From positions 352,001 to 416,000 of the forward strand of contig CAVUAK010000001.1 of the NCBI GenBank assembly GCA_963739455.1: DNA of 64,000 nt. Reading direction: 5' to 3'. A model generated the notes under the pieces. It was given only the letters and a program-made list of their open reading frames with translations. It had not been told where the DNA came from and searched no databases. Positions 12,281 through 43,278 of this stretch are shown here, piece by piece; positions within the stretch are counted from its first letter, which is position 1; each line of letters begins with the position of its first letter. Origin of the DNA: an uncultured Gemmatimonadales bacterium. Its GTDB lineage: Bacteria > Gemmatimonadota > Gemmatimonadetes > Gemmatimonadales > GWC2-71-9. Both the position numbers and the translations under genes were made by a program.

Positions 12281-12312
12281 CGTTTCTCGGTGTAAGGTCG
12301 GGCTAGAATCTA

Positions 12313-12386
12313 GGCGGGTACGGCGGGTAAGGCGGGGAGGGGCGGGGAGGACACCCCACTTCCCCGCCTTCCCCGCCCTCCCCGCC
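12313..12386. repeat. Inverted pair of nonamer arrays in the divergent glmM / cystathionine gamma-synthase intergenic region
   Basis: Left GGCGGGTAC GGCGGGTAA GGCGGGGAG G GGCGGGGAG; right TTCCCCGCC TTCCCCGCC CTCCCCGCC. Confidence 0.85.
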
Positions 12387-12421
12387 CTGACTAGGCTTCC
12401 CCCTCCTCAAGCCACCCGTCC

Positions 12422-13590
12422 ATGACCCAGATCCGCGACCACGACCTGACCCTCGGCTTTGCCACTCGAGCCGTGCACGCCGGCCAGCAGCCGGACCTCC
12501 TGTCCGGCGCCGTCATGACACCGATATACCAGACCTCGACCTATGCGCAGGAAGGCATTGGTCGTCACAAGGGCTACGAGTACGCGCGGACTCAGAACCC
12601 CACGCGCGAAGCGCTCGAGCGCAACATTGCCAGCCTCGAGGGTGGACAATTCGGCTTTGCGTTCGCGTCCGGCCTTGCGTCGCTCGATGCGATCCTCAAG
12701 CTCCTCAAGGCCGGTGATCATGTGATCTGCGGCGCCAACGTCTACGGCGGCTCGCATCGCCTCATGGAGCGGCTGTACACCAACTTCGGGCTGACGTTCA
12801 CCTTCGCCGACATGCGCGACATCAAGAATGTCGAACGCGCCATCACGCCCGCGACGCGACTCATCTTCGGCGAGACGCCCACCAACCCGATGATGCACCT
12901 CTCCGATCTCAGCGCGATCGGTGACGTGGCCCAATCGCATGGGCTTGTCTTTGCTGTGGACAATACATTCGCGACGCCCGTCTTCCAGCAGCCGCTCGGG
13001 CTGGGCGCGGATATCGTGCTCCACTCCACCACCAAGTACCTCAACGGTCATAGTGACATGATCGGGGGGATGCTCGTCGTCAATCGCGAGGATCTCGCCG
13101 AGCGGCTCGGCTTCATCCAGAACGCGTCGGGCGCCGTGCCAGGCCCGATGGATTGCTGGCTCTGCCTCCGCGGCACCAAGACGCTGCCGCTCCGCATGGC
13201 GCGTCACGATGCCAGCGGACGACAGATCGCGAAGTGGCTCACCGAGCGGAAGGACATCAGCACGGTCTACTATCCCGGCCTGCCCGATCCAACCCGCAGT
13301 TCGAGCTGGCGAAGCGGCAGATGAAGGGCTTCGGCGGCATGATCAGCTTCGACGTGAACGATGCGGCGCGCGCGCGCCGCGTCGCCGAGAAAGTGAAGAT
13401 CTTCGCGCTCGCCGAGTCACTCGGCGGGGTGGAGAGCCTTATCGGTCACCCGGCGTCCATGACCCACGCCGCCGTGCCGCAGGCGCAGCGCCTGGAAATG
13501 GGCCTCACCGACAGCCTGCTGCGATTGAGCGTTGGCGTGGAGGAAGTCGATGATCTGCTGGCGGATCTGGATCAGGCACTTCGGACGTGA
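12422..13590 (+). CDS. Cystathionine gamma-synthase/lyase, PLP-dependent transsulfuration family (frameshift near 13290)
   Basis: PIYQTST, YARTQNPTR, ETPTNP, DNTFATP, HSTTKYLNGHSD, AESLGGVESL, RLSVGVE. Confidence 0.9.
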
Positions 13591-13707: not shown

Positions 13708-14724
13708 ATGTCGTCGTCCATTCCCGTCGCCCGCTCGCGCCGCACCTTTCCCGGCATAGCCGCCGTCACCTGGGAGCACCCCGCCGACCGCGCGGCGCTC
13801 CAGGCCCTGCGCAGCGTGCCCGGCGCCGAGGAAGTCATCAAGAAGATCCTTGCCATGATCGGTGGCGAGCGCGGCATTCGCCTCCTGTTCCAGGGCAATG
13901 CCGTACGCGTCGGACCCGAGCAGTATCCGCGGATCTGGACCCTCCACACCGAGGTCTGCACCACCTTCGACTGGGACGTCGTGCCCGAGCTGTACGTCTC
14001 CCAGACGCCATTCGTGAACGCCGGTGCCTACGGCATCGACGAGCCGTTCATCGTCCTCAACTCGTCGGCCATCGAGCTCCTCACCGACGACGAGGTGCGC
14101 GTCCTCATCTCGCACGAGATGGGGCACGTCATGAGCGGCCATTCGCTCTACCGCACCATCGCGGCGATCCTGGCTCTCATCAGCCTCGGTGCACTCCCTG
14201 CCCTGGCAGGACTCGCCCTGCTGCCGGTCCGGCTCGCGTTCCTCGAGTGGTCCCGGAAGGCGGAGCTCTCCAGCGATCGCGCCGGCCTCGTTGGCAGCCA
14301 GGACATTCTCTCCACGCAGCGGCTCTTCATGAAGCTTGCGGGCGGCGGGCGGGGCGACCAGTTCGTGGGCCAGCTCAACGTCGATGCGTTCATTGCCCAG
14401 GCCAACGAGTACGCGACGTCCAACGAGGGCCTCGACATCGTCTACAAGGTGCTGGCTACGCTCGGCCTCACGCATCCGATGAGCACGGTGCGCGCCGGCG
14501 AGTTGCAGGCGTGGGTCGCCTCGGGAGACTACGAGCGCATCGTGCGCGGCGAGTACGTGCATCGCGGCGCTGAGGCGCGCGAGCGTCCGCTCAGGGACGA
14601 CTTCGCCGCGGCGGGCCGGCACTACGCCGCCGGCGCGCGCGACGTCGCGTCACAGGTGGCCGACGCCGCCAAGGGCGTGGCCGATCGGGTGGGAGAAGCG
14701 TTCCGGCAGGCCCAGAAGTCGTGA
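13708..14724 (+). CDS. M48-family zinc metallopeptidase
   Basis: NAGAYG, HEMGH, WSRKAELSSDRAG, THP motifs. Confidence 0.9.
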   Translation: MSSSIPVARSRRTFPGIAAVTWEHPADRAALQALRSVPGAEEVIKKILAMIGGERGIRLLFQGNAVRVGPEQYPRIWTLHTEVCTTFDWDVVPELYVSQTPFVNAGAYGIDEPFIVLNSSAIELLTDDEVRVLISHEMGHVMSGHSLYRTIAAILALISLGALPALAGLALLPVRLAFLEWSRKAELSSDRAGLVGSQDILSTQRLFMKLAGGGRGDQFVGQLNVDAFIAQANEYATSNEGLDIVYKVLATLGLTHPMSTVRAGELQAWVASGDYERIVRGEYVHRGAEARERPLRDDFAAAGRHYAAGARDVASQVADAAKGVADRVGEAFRQAQKS

Positions 14725-15995
14725 GGCTGCTAGTCGTAGGCGGTGGCGGGCGCGAACACGCACTATGCTGGGCCCTCCACCGCGAAAACCCGGACGTGAT
14801 CATCTGCTGCGCGCCCGGAAATCCTGGCACCGCTGAATTCGCCACCAACCTCGCCATTGCCGCCGACGACATCGATCGCATCGCCGATGCGACCGACATG
14901 TACGGCATTGACCTCGTCATCATCGGGCCCGAAGTGCCGCTGGCGCTCGGTCTGGCCGACCGGCTGCGTGCCGAGGGACGGCTCGTCACCGGGCCCGGCG
15001 CCGCGGCGGCGCGCATCGAGGCCTCGAAGGCGTTCTCCAAGGACGTGATGGCGGCCGCGGGCATTCCCACCGCGGCGAGCGAGACCTTCACTGATCTTCA
15101 GGCAGCACTCGCGTACGTCGCGAAGCACGCCGAACCACTGGTGGTGAAGGCCTCCGGCCTCGCGGCGGGCAAGGGTGCGATCGTCTGCGCCACGCGCGCG
15201 GAAGCGAAGGCGGCGGTGCAGTCGATGCTCGGCGATCGCCAGTTCGGTGACGCCGGCAGCGTCGTCGTCATCGAGGCCTTTCTCGAGGGTGAGGAAGTCT
15301 CGCTGCTCGGCTTGACCGACGGCCGGACCGTCGAGCTCCTTCCTGCAGCGCAGGATCACAAGCGCCTGCTCGAGGGAGACCAGGGGCCCAACACCGGCGG
15401 CATGGGCGCCTACGCACCAGTCTCCATCGCGACGCCCGCGCTGCTCGAGCGCGCGCGCAGGGAAGTCTTTGCGCCCTGCCTCGCGGAGCTCGCGCGACGC
15501 GGCGCGCCATTCACCGGTGTGCTCTACGCCGGCCTGATGGTGGCGCCCGACGGCACGCCCAACGTGGTCGAGTTCAACTGCCGCCTCGGTGATCCGGAGA
15601 CGGAAGTGGTGCTGCCCCTGGTGACGAATGGCCTTCTCGCCGCGTTCGAGGCCATCGCTCGCAGCGAGACACCGCCGCCGCTCGAGATCGCGCGCGACCG
15701 CTTTGCGGTGACCACGGTGCTGGCATCCGAGGGATATCCCGACAAGCCGATGAAGGGGCAGCCGATCGACTTCCCCGAGAGCTTCCCTCCCGGTGTCCTC
15801 GCGTTCCATGCCGGCACCACCCGAGACGTCCAGGGCGTGCTGCGCGTCAGCGGCGGTCGCGTGTTCGCCGTGACAGGCGTGGGCGCCACCTTCGAGGAGG
15901 CGCAGGCACGCAGCCGCAGCGGTGCCGAGGCGATTCACTACCAGGGCAAGGTCTATCGCAGCGACATCGGCTGGAGAGAGGTCGAGAGGCGTTAA
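14721..15995 (+). CDS. purD: Phosphoribosylamine--glycine ligase
   Basis: GGGGREHAL, APGNPG, GPEVPL, KASGLAAGKG, QDHKRL..GPNTGGMGAY, EFNCRLGDPE. Confidence 0.98.
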   Translation: MRLLVVGGGGREHALCWALHRENPDVIICCAPGNPGTAEFATNLAIAADDIDRIADATDMYGIDLVIIGPEVPLALGLADRLRAEGRLVTGPGAAAARIEASKAFSKDVMAAAGIPTAASETFTDLQAALAYVAKHAEPLVVKASGLAAGKGAIVCATRAEAKAAVQSMLGDRQFGDAGSVVVIEAFLEGEEVSLLGLTDGRTVELLPAAQDHKRLLEGDQGPNTGGMGAYAPVSIATPALLERARREVFAPCLAELARRGAPFTGVLYAGLMVAPDGTPNVVEFNCRLGDPETEVVLPLVTNGLLAAFEAIARSETPPPLEIARDRFAVTTVLASEGYPDKPMKGQPIDFPESFPPGVLAFHAGTTRDVQGVLRVSGGRVFAVTGVGATFEEAQARSRSGAEAIHYQGKVYRSDIGWREVERR

Positions 15996-16034
15996 GCGTT
16001 AAGCGTTAGGCGTTAGGCGTTAGGCGTTAGGCGT
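15989..16034 (+). repeat. 6.5 x heptamer GCGTTA(A/G)
   Basis: GCGTTAA x2, GCGTTAG x4, GCGT; provides the stop codons of both purD (15993-15995) and the convergent four-helix-bundle gene (16020-16022). Confidence 0.95.
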
Positions 16035-16385
16035 GGAAAGGAGGCTTCGCCGCAACCCGCCAAGCAAGCGGCCGGTTTCCTCGTTCCGATTCTCCAGCTC
16101 GGCGTGTGTCGCGTCGCTCAGGTATCCGAGTGCATGAGCAATGTCGAAGAGGCACGCAAGTTCGCCGAGAGACCCTGCCGCTATGCTGAGGTATCGTGCA
16201 AACTCGTTTCGACCGTGTCGTGCGGCCCCTTCGGCAATGTTTGCGCAGACTGAGACGGCCGCCCTTCGCGCCTGAGCTGTCAGGCCGAAGCGTTCATGTG
16301 AGGGCCACGGGCCTGAAACGCGATATACTTCAAGGGTCAGTGCACGGGCGTGTTGCCAGGAGACGAAACGTGAGTGGCGAGCCAT
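16020..16385 (-). CDS. Four-helix-bundle protein (23S rRNA intervening-sequence protein / TIGR02436-like family)
   Basis: Family signature WQ....VY...P..ERFGLTAQ.RRAAVSV.ANIAEG....EF.RYL.IA.GS..E; 121 aa; antisense to both neighbours. Confidence 0.9.
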   Translation of the reverse strand: MARHSRFVSWQHARALTLEVYRVSGPWPSHERFGLTAQARRAAVSVCANIAEGAARHGRNEFARYLSIAAGSLGELACLFDIAHALGYLSDATHAELENRNEETGRLLGGLRRSLLSTPNA

Positions 16386-16468
16386 GCTTGATCCTTACAT
16401 CAAATAGCAGGTCTTCATGCACCCTTTCTTCGCGACCTGGGGCATACTGCCGCGCTAGCATGTCACAA

Positions 16469-16493
16469 CCAACGCCTCACGACTAACGCCTAA
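16469..16493 (+). repeat. Degenerate heptamer array C(C/T)(A/C)ACG(C/A), inverted relative to 15989-16034
   Basis: CCAACGC CTCACGA CTAACGC CTAA, ending directly at the mutM GTG; reverse complement matches 16006-16030 at 22/25 positions. Confidence 0.8.
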
Positions 16494-17351
16494 GTGCCCG
16501 AACTGCCCGAGGTCGAGACCATCGTCCGCGACCTTCGTCCCCACCTGGTCGGTCGCACCATCCAGAGCGCGAAGCTGTCTCACGACGACGTTCTCCGCGG
16601 CGTCACGAAGCGGAAGCTCGTCGCGTCGCTCGCCGGGGCCCGAATTGTCGGCATGACACGCCGCGCCAAGCACGCGATCCTCGAGCTCGGCTTTCCACTT
16701 CACGTCCTTACGTCTTCACGTCCTCACGTCTTGTCATCCAACCCGGCATGACCGGCTCCCTCATGATCTCACGACAAGCCACTCACCCCAGCGGAGGCCG
16801 AAATACTGCCGTCCTCCGCGCCCCGCTCGACGACGGCCGGGAGCTGGTCTACCGCGACGTGCGCCGTCTGGGCACAATTCTGTTGCTCGACGAAAAGGGC
16901 TGGGCCGCTTACGACGCGGCCCTGGGCCCCGAACCCCTCGACCCCGAACTCACGCCCGCTCGCTTCGCCGCCATCATGGCGTCGTCGAAACAGGCGATCA
17001 AGAAGGTGCTGATGGACCAGCGGAAGATCGTCGGCGTCGGCAACATCTACGCGAACGAGGCGCTCTTCGCGGCGGGTATCGACCCGTCCAAGGCCGCGTC
17101 GCGACTCACGACCTCACGACTCACGACTCCTGCTCGACCCACACCCGCGCATCCTGGAGGCCGCGATCGCTCCCAGGGCACCACCTTCCGCGACTACCGC
17201 ACCGGCACCGGCGAGAAGGGCAACTTCCAGCTCGAGCTCTTCGTCTACGGTCGCGAGGGAGAGAAGTGCAAGGTGTGCGGCACACGGCTGGCCCACACGC
17301 ACGAGATCGACGCGCGCATGCACCGTCTTCTGCCACAAATGCCAGCAGTAG
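16494..17351 (+). CDS. mutM: Formamidopyrimidine-DNA glycosylase (several frameshifts, two at repeat arrays)
   Basis: MPELPEVET, RRAK, GMTG, DVRRLG, LGPEPL, DQ..VGVGNIYANE, GTTFRDY, VYGREG.C..C and, in a shifted frame, TVFCHKCQ ending TAG 17349-17351. Confidence 0.9.
16699..16730 (+). repeat. 4 x octamer (C/T)T(C/T)ACGTC inside mutM
   Basis: TTCACGTC CTTACGTC TTCACGTC CTCACGTC; coincides with a reading-frame break. Confidence 0.9.
17105..17126 (+). repeat. 3 x CTCACGA inside mutM
   Basis: CTCACGA C CTCACGA CTCACGA; same unit occurs at 16476-16482. Confidence 0.75.
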
Positions 17352-25985: not shown

Positions 25986-26038
25986 CCTGTTCCCTGTTCC
26001 CTGTTCCCCGCCACTTCACGTCCTCACGTCCTCACGTC
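25986..26038 (+). repeat. Compound array: 3 x CCTGTTC, 1 x TTCCCCGCC, 3 x (T/C)TCACGTC
   Basis: Three repeat families abut between the ubiA stop (26032-26034) and the ubiX SD. Confidence 0.9.
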
Positions 26039-42460: not shown

Positions 42461-42488
42461 GTGTCCTCGGTTATCTGTTTCCACCCAC

Positions 42489-42516
42489 CCAACGCCCAAC
42501 GCCCAACGCCCAACGC
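42489..42516 (+). repeat. 4 x CCAACGC immediately after the DUF62 stop
   Basis: Perfect tandem; same family as CTAACGC/GCGTTAG at 15989-16493. Confidence 0.92.
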
Positions 42517-43278
42517 CTACCCGCCCAGTCGCGCCCGCACCTCATGACCCACACCAATGCCCAGTCGACGAGCCGCCGATCCATCACGGACGGCAATCTC
42601 CACCAGCCCGCCCGAGCCGACGTAGCTCACCAGCCCGCCACTTGGCACGTCACCAAACGTCTTCTGCAGCCGGCCCACTTCGAGGTCGTTGGTCTCGAGC
42701 ACGGCGTAGTCCGGCACTTCCTCGGTGGTGAGGTTCGTCACCAGCGTGCCGAAACGGTCCACGTAGATCACCTCGCCGACCACCACCTTGCCCTCGTAGT
42801 GCGGCGCGCCCGCGGTAAGGCGGACCAGGTCGGCACTGGCGGGGGCGCCAAGCAGGTGCAACGGGTAACCCATGAGGATGCGCGCCGCCGCAGGCGCAAA
42901 GAGGTCGCGGCCATGAAACGTGGGAGCGGCACGCTCCGGCGTCTCCAGCGTCACGGCCTCGAATGGTCCCGCGGTGAGCACATAGGAGAAGATGCCGTTG
43001 TCCGGTCCCACGAAGGTGTGACCATGTGACCGCACCGCAAGCGCAGCCCGCGCCGTTCCTACGCCAGGATCGACTACCGCGAGGTGGACCGTGCCTTCGG
43101 GGAATGACCGCCACGCGCGACCCAGCACATAGGCAGCGCTTCGAATGTCTCCGGGGGGGATGAGGTGGGTGATGTCCACGATGCCGGCATCAGGCACTCG
43201 AGACAACAGCACGCCCTTCACCTCGGCGACATAGGAGTCGTTGAGGCCGTAGTCCGTCAGGAAGGTGATGAGTGGCAC
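42517..43278 (-). CDS. SAM hydroxide adenosyltransferase / chlorinase-fluorinase family (DUF62)
   Basis: ITFLTDYG..D.YV, VDITH, VVDPGVG, GPDNG, TFHGRD.FAP, D.FG, GS.G.VEIA. Confidence 0.92.
   Translation of the reverse strand: MPLITFLTDYGLNDSYVAEVKGVLLSRVPDAGIVDITHLIPPGDIRSAAYVLGRAWRSFPEGTVHLAVVDPGVGTARAALAVRSHGHTFVGPDNGIFSYVLTAGPFEAVTLETPERAAPTFHGRDLFAPAAARILMGYPLHLLGAPASADLVRLTAGAPHYEGKVVVGEVIYVDRFGTLVTNLTTEEVPDYAVLETNDLEVGRLQKTFGDVPSGGLVSYVGSGGLVEIAVRDGSAARRLGIGVGHEVRARLGG

Follow-up and report, generated by a model that had tools for sequence, protein, structure and literature searches.

The 23S rRNA intervening sequences (IVSs) of Coxiella burnetii and Leptospira are small elements in which a gene of the S23p family (PF05635) lies inside a terminal inverted-repeat stem. 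As described in PMC4990558, the Coxiella IVS combines a 28-bp terminal stem, tandem heptamers and an S23p ORF reported to be decaying, and its excision by RNase III fragments the RNA. REPIN-RAYT systems feature single-copy master genes encoding a tyrosine transposase, each flanked by its own repeat family, together with gene-less inverted doublets and singlets in intergenic space, and their inheritance is described as mostly vertical with some transfer (PMC3116915). In diversity-generating retroelements (DGRs), the accessory protein Avd (4DWL) offers a precedent for chaperoning the templated copying of a repeat onto a repeat (PMC10053308). Furthermore, the heptamer arrays of Xanthomonas and Nostoc place their G-rich strand after stop codons and the antisense strand before starts, with inverted pairs in Xanthomonas (PMC4692102), and arrays in Beggiatoaceae are placed alike (PMC4679880). 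The passages on arrays in these two reports name no source element and draw no link to PF05635. The supplement of PMC4692102 (row 15) lists a GGGAATC array at the start of XCC0516 of Xanthomonas, with no inverted partner listed.

The element described here is a cassette of about 500 bp, read from the sequence as a G-rich arm, a four-helix-bundle gene and a C-rich arm, and set between purD and mutM in the window, the 64,000-nucleotide stretch of DNA that was analysed (Table 1). Judging from sequence comparison, PF05635 cassettes are probably the source of the short repeats scattered through the chromosome. The anatomy appears to be held in common with the S23p IVSs, which share the protein family, a long terminal inverted-repeat stem of similar size round the ORF and adjoining tandem heptamers (PMC4990558). 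Unlike them, the cassette lies outside any rRNA gene, has no Rfam match, encloses a gene that runs antisense to the host transcript and evolves under purifying selection, and has arms that are whole tandem arrays tied to genome-wide families. In logic it appears closest to REPIN-RAYT, with a master gene, its own dispersed family and inverted doublets, apart from four orphan families. In contrast to RAYT, the enclosed gene encodes an all-helical Avd-like bundle; moreover, its repeats consist of 7-9-nt units in tandem, varying in copy number, where REPINs have REP palindromes; a site can keep its array while the unit is rewritten, and the cassette gene itself moves. The fold is shared with Avd of the DGRs, whereas the protein falls below the Avd family cut-off (24.5 bits against DivGenRetAVD, cut-off 80) and no reverse transcriptase (PF00078) was found in the six genomes searched, which are 84-99% complete. 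As for IS and MITE elements, profile search found no transposase in the insert, and inspection of the purD-mutM junctions by eye revealed no target-site duplication, a weak test because the empty sites have diverged. Thus the element is neither an rRNA IVS, by its location, nor a REPIN-RAYT, as its enclosed gene is no RAYT and its repeats are not REP palindromes, nor a DGR, as no reverse transcriptase was found in those genomes. The analysis itself tested the one-to-one match across species, the rewriting of orthologous sites, the end motif and the skew-linked polarity. A literature search that took in few subscription journals and no supplements of bioRxiv papers found no published description of the cassette, nor a possible report on bacterial 'tandem inverse repeats'.

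The genome holding the window is referred to as G000 and its contig as C1, relatives as G001-G009 and so on, and individual loci by L-numbers. As the original prediction had it, a PF05635 gene lies antisense between inverted heptamer arms. The ORF scores 107.5 bits against TIGR02436 (cut-off 24) and 112.7 bits against PF05635 (cut-off 33.8). The right arm ends directly at the mutM GTG and matches the left arm at 22 of 25 positions, both as predicted; such a match to the C-rich strand (at least 22/25) occurs at only 10 genome sites, with about 0.002 expected per 600 nt. The left array had been placed as starting in the purD stop codon. The heptamers are there, starting in the last two purD codons and running over the stop, and their opposite strand does encode the last residues and stop of the four-helix gene (TPNA plus stop). 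The insert is also less GC-rich than its surroundings, as had been judged by eye: with a GC of 0.59, compared with 0.67 across the window, it ranks among the lowest 1.3% of the 505-nt tiles of C1, and GC3 of the four-helix gene is 0.62 against 0.83-0.89 in neighbouring genes. No convincing case of other cargo between inverted arms was found. The G000 assembly is 84% complete and contains frameshifts, for instance in mutM and in a cystathionine gamma-synthase-like gene at 12422. The mutM frameshift falls at the separate 8-mer array, is absent from all three relatives translated, and may be a long-read error.

Table 1. Features of the purD-mutM cassette and related repeats (window positions)
Feature	Position	Strand	Basis or remark
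purD, host gene on left flank	14721..15995	+	
Left arm, G-rich heptamer array AGGCGTT, 6.9 copies	15987..16034	+	period 7, 95% matches
Four-helix-bundle gene, PF05635/TIGR02436, 121 aa	16020..16385	-	profile matches, dN/dS, fold
AT-richer leader, GC 0.52; probable promoter and ribosome site of the four-helix gene	16386..16468	.	16386-16493 identical at 98/108 in G008
TAnnnT hexamer, 32 nt upstream of mutM start; possible outward -10 element standing in for mutM's own leaderless promoter	16456..16461	+	kept in G008
Right arm, degenerate C-rich inverted heptamer array	16469..16493	+	abuts mutM GTG at 16494
mutM 5' part, host gene on right flank, frameshifted in this assembly	16494..16751	+	
8-mer array in mutM loop, unit species-specific	16698..16732	+	
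Solo dispersed array of the purD-mutM cassette's family, CCCAACG, 4.3 copies	42488..42517	+	
Inverted pair enclosing no gene, from the 9-mer family of the paralogous cassette L003; not present in G008	12312..12388	.	
Unit-switch sites	756; 5162; 16698 (mutM loop); 19658; 42488		cross-species comparison

The protein is a PF05635/TIGR02436 four-helix-bundle member, passing the curated cut-offs and showing a four-helix fold in the predicted model. This model consists of four long helices (pLDDT 96) and superposes on Xcc0516 (2GSC) with a TM score of 0.92 and 40% identity. The structural kinship to Avd that had been stated earlier is likewise seen in the model, which superposes on 4DWL with TM 0.79 and rmsd 1.9 at 10% identity, although the family score lies below the Avd cut-off. 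Given the identity to 2GSC and the description in PMC4990558, the protein may form a homopentamer. Its gene evolves under purifying selection (dN/dS 0.125 against G008) and matches PF05635/bAvd only. An NIAEG motif in the protein is invariant.

The same packaging recurs at other PF05635 genes. All five such genes in G000 have inverted arms, each built from a different 7-, 8- or 9-base unit, and tblastn with 48 proteins found no further convincing copy in this genome. At the level of genus and order, 44 of 48 loci have inverted arms, taken as an inverted repeat scoring at least 14 between the flanks, whereas among 700 control ORFs only 4 do (1/400 small and 3/300 large), so the excess of flanking repeats over other genes that the original prediction called for does exist. 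Clear tandem periodicity is present in both flanks at 26 of the 48. Among GTDB loci with full flanks, a set that omits the near-identical relative L178 (94% identity) and six loci with short flanks, inverted arms were found at 41 of 73 in at least 13 named phyla, and direct repeats at 6 of 73; the 5' arm has more G than C in 34 of the 41. At some loci the cassette has been kept genus-wide while both arms changed unit together, and units shift among 7, 8 and 9 nt between close proteins. On the protein tree, which omits 4 of the 48 as short proteins, unit length changes three times against a minimum of eight in 500 shuffles, as counted on the 35 rows left after nine more without clear period were set aside. 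Because kin share unit length, the count cannot be read as evidence that the unit is set by the protein, and co-inheritance alone could yield the pattern. Two cassette genes, L004 (G000:C1:2353092-2353271) and L055 of G003, look broken (frameshift; internal stop), and their array families are abundant; the break in L004 may be an assembly error.

The cassette was also described earlier as a compact mobile unit, and empty sites in relatives bear this out. Thirty purD loci were examined, and four were left out as their mutM junction was not resolved. The cassette gene is present in 3 of the remaining 26 (G000, G008 and G006) and absent from 23, rather than fixed at the locus. The junction is short and empty in G009 and G003, and purD and mutM overlap or abut in outgroups; cassettes elsewhere have inverted arms as well. 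The G008 gene is 94% identical to that of G000 and shares its unit, and the G006 gene is 55% identical and has 8-mer arms. A four-gene host tree groups G000 with G009 and G001 and not with G008 (98/100; AU p 0.002). Since G000 and G008 are thus not sister hosts, the cassette was either transferred or lost several times. A lower dS for the cassette than for its flank (0.245 against 0.67 for purD) was considered as a sign of youth and set aside as evidence of transfer, the divergence of 0.22 at four-fold sites lying within the 0.19-0.43 of seven neighbouring genes.

The purD-site gene of G006 is sister to the paralog L003 (100/97; 65% versus 53% identity). In G000, L003 lies 18 kb away, and the L003 site is empty in G006. 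These relationships suggest that the G006 cassette relocated, and the purD site was likely filled twice independently, at the strength allowed by a test that does not reject monophyly of the three purD-site genes, that is, simple orthology (AU p 0.146). A candidate decayed cassette gene at the L003 site of G001 scored within shuffles and was rejected. Upstream of a gene that we take from its sequence to be coaE, one cassette clade is found antisense in five genomes, whereas in G001 the site is occupied by another clade that points the opposite way. For several cassettes, inheritance at a single locus is stable. As far as such comparisons tell, the cassette moves, but rarely. At four relatives' junctions (L013, L015, L017 and L018), a gene that looks membrane-protein-like by eye stands between purD and mutM instead, which makes this junction a recurrent insertion site. 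Before mutM at L013 (G002) there is a non-tandem long hairpin repeat, REP/REPIN-like by eye, and such a repeat is also present at G000:C1 near 1266700-1266850, a site that holds a cassette in G009.

The link between the gene and the repeat arrays scattered through the window, raised in the original prediction as a possibility, is now considerably strengthened. There are 537 arrays of 7-9-mers in G000, and 219 of them are exact matches to the unit of a resident arm, whereas none of 200 letter-shuffled unit sets gave more than 98; in a softer test allowing one mismatch, 337 match against 224 in the best shuffle. The purD-mutM unit is dispersed in only two of 12 congeners, both carriers of the cassette (25 matches at 9 sites in G000, 70 matches in G008), and no matches were found in the other ten. 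For 11 units compared across genomes, all 20 cassette-positive cells are array-rich (at least 11 matches) against 4 of 81 negative cells. The matrix holds 102 genome-by-unit cells, of which one ambiguous cell was omitted (G000, 8-mer, 97 matches, drifted arms). Its patterns were chosen from the arms, its matches overlap and include the arms themselves, and its genomes are related, so a formal p-value would overstate the result. In pooled samples, array density was lower where the gene is missing (six genomes, 13 arrays in 414 kb) than where it is present (six genomes, 73 arrays in 392 kb), with p = 0.063 when compared per genome, and G021 has six gene copies and no arrays in 33 kb.

Additionally, orthologous sites document replacement as well as presence and absence. 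The place and strand of an array are kept while its unit is often that of each species' own cassette; at 42488, for example, G006 carries the 8-mer of its own cassette. A second trace is AACWGCG, the non-repeat end motif of the L005 arms, which precedes 10 of 34 L005-family arrays (background 0.007). It also stands before 18 of 60 arrays of an orphan family, whose unit differs from one form of the motif by only one mismatch, and before 2 of 305 arrays in four other families. This type of end motif is limited to two families of the L005/L043 clade; in the purD-mutM cassette's own family, a shared end motif was found at 1 of 16 arrays only. By eye, dispersed copies of the purD-mutM unit reuse the unit variants of its right arm.

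Host slippage and gene conversion might instead spread and rewrite arrays passively, in which case the arms would be ordinary arrays that happen to insulate a passenger gene, itself serving some unrelated function. This is an unlikely account, albeit one with several observations on its side. Four array families have no matching cassette: G006 (97% complete), for instance, has 39 matches to a unit on none of its three cassettes, and G000 has 31 matches at 21 sites to the unit of a G009 cassette. Most inverted array pairs are gene-less, with spacers of 1-86 nt in 44 of 59; stacked arrays of different families share one orientation in 5 of 6 cases; and the searches for a catalytic partner, covering reverse transcriptase in the six genomes and the GxxExxY-type family PF13366 in G000, found none. 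However, passive spread predicts that cassettes within a genome share its commonest unit, and by eye no two of 24 cassettes in seven multi-copy genomes have a unit in common. It also leaves unexplained the shared end motif and the enclosure of 44 of 48 PF05635 genes, against none of 400 small ORFs when all three enclosure criteria are counted together.

Stacks of different-family arrays, head to tail on the same strand, lie at G000:C1:2429338, 2476138 and 2565048 and at 25986-26038 in the window, as if existing arrays attracted new ones. Arrays are also seen within mutM loops (16698-16732 and 17102-17129); in the first loop, six species have different repeat-like inserts, in frame in the three relatives translated. 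At G000:C1:1076173-1076502, an inverted 8-mer pair surrounds 270 nt of apparently continuous coding sequence, with its arrays in two host-gene loops.

The polarity of the arrays is fixed. Among 407 family arrays, inverted pairs have the G-rich arm first in 113 cases against none the other way round. On a heuristic set of 2,243 G000 ORFs, G-rich strands follow stop codons (122 versus 47) and C-rich strands precede starts (39 versus 23), the same placement as described for Xanthomonas and Nostoc (PMC4692102). In G000, the polarity of solo arrays follows the local GC skew measured at four-fold sites (rho 0.84 over 46 bins), and array density follows skew magnitude (rho 0.73), with a weaker polarity-skew correlation in G006 (rho 0.54, 20 bins); by eye, polarity does not track gene direction. 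If skew reflects fork direction, these correlations point to a replication-strand step in array formation.

An alternative proposal is that the protein is a regulator that binds its cognate repeat as DNA or RNA, the arrays being selected sites at gene ends and the arms serving autoregulation. Purifying selection on the gene, one repeat family per protein and the preference of G-rich strands for the position just after stops, here and in PMC4692102, all agree with such a regulon. Still, it is distinctly improbable: it offers no account of the unit switch at hundreds of sites from one congener to another, of the arrays in coding loops or of the close tracking of skew by polarity, and the changes among 7, 8 and 9 nt in close proteins speak against it.

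At the RNA level, the arms had been predicted to pair in the purD-mutM transcript, and computed folding agrees. The arm-arm duplex reaches -34.7 kcal/mol, and the predicted pairing probability is at least 0.85 at 20 of the 31 positions tested (16463-16493); the whole insert is not more structured than shuffles (z -1.22). A search of sequencing runs listed no RNA run, with every share below 0.1. It had further been proposed that the insert is looped out or excised, keeping purD and mutM coupled. The pairing of arms that abut stop and start favours such an mRNA-level intervening sequence, as does the Coxiella precedent with its stem, heptamers and RNase III cut (PMC4990558). This proposal fares poorly against the rest of the evidence and is very unlikely. 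Among 10 loci that lack the cassette and begin mutM with ATG, 8 have TAnnnT 6-8 nt upstream of it, so mutM mostly has its own leaderless-promoter signature and need not be coupled to purD. The arm of G006 ends 11 nt short of mutM; two of the five G000 cassettes are flanked by convergent stops, where coupling would be meaningless, and some other cassettes are in sense orientation. Moreover, excision of the Coxiella IVS leaves fragmented RNA that is not known to be religated, and dispersed arrays are not accounted for. Restoring purD-mutM coupling is therefore an unlikely role of the stem, which, by analogy with Coxiella, could be an RNase III substrate.

None of the three filled loci keeps its own TAnnnT at 6-8 nt before mutM, and in G000 and G008 a TAnnnT is found inside the cassette instead, so the cassette seems to have replaced a leaderless mutM promoter. 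A transcription start is predicted near 16468. Genome-wide, TAnnnT peaks 5-7 nt before ATG: of 2,243 G000 ORFs, 87 have it at one of the three distances, compared with some 7 per position, an excess suggesting that leaderless transcription is common in G000.

We lean towards the explanation that each cassette is an occasionally mobile master whose arms template one family of tandem arrays, helped in cis by the Avd-like protein and copied by host enzymes. The support from sequence comparison is correlative throughout, and no enzyme was found in the cassette. We infer the part of the protein, its action in cis, the polymerase and the fork step from the patterns above. An Avd-like pentamer would bind the arm nucleic acid of its own cassette, and this cis preference would explain why there is one family per cassette. 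With the pentamer's help, a host DNA polymerase would use the arm as a template and copy it, with slippage, into new sites, probably where DNA is single-stranded at replication forks. New cassettes would arise, though rarely, from full copies, hairpin pairs from copies without the gene, and solo arrays from one-ended copies, with insertions persisting chiefly where genes end or where the encoded protein forms a loop. A switch of template from one arm to the other would keep the two complementary as their unit drifts. Cleavage of the RNA stem by RNase III would come as a by-product that lets 23S rRNA serve as a tolerated target, which would explain the classical S23p IVSs.

In a wider and more tentative form, which falls slightly short of an even call, PF05635 cassettes would constitute a class of mobile or domesticated elements that themselves encode neither a transposase nor an integrase nor a reverse transcriptase. 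Their Avd-like pentamer would direct host polymerases to write arm repeats with a replication-strand bias, giving the 7-9-nt arrays of many phyla as well as the ORF-bearing rRNA IVSs. The cassettes bear on three long-open questions, namely the function of PF05635, the origin of 7-9-nt arrays in environmental bacteria and the spread of ORF-bearing rRNA IVSs. The rule of one cassette, one family leads to the prediction that a new arm unit is written into a genome only with an intact gene; if true, this would be a compact sequence-writing system without a known catalytic component.

The GC skew of G000:C1 is itself unusual in shape. It is saw-toothed, with abrupt plus-to-minus flips near 77, 779, 1486 and 2459 kb and gradual ramps between them, and the pattern persists at four-fold sites and with arrays masked. 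Misassembly is an unlikely cause, since the collinear contig G006:C7, sampled at 41 points of 15-20 kb, also has about four flips of this kind. The best dnaA match, at 882 kb, lies neither at a flip nor at a trough of the skew, and more DnaA-domain matches besides the main dnaA are found at G000:C1:2234918-2236787. The chromosome looks as if it had several replication domains, with either dispersed origins between fork barriers or several origins, an unusual arrangement for a bacterium.
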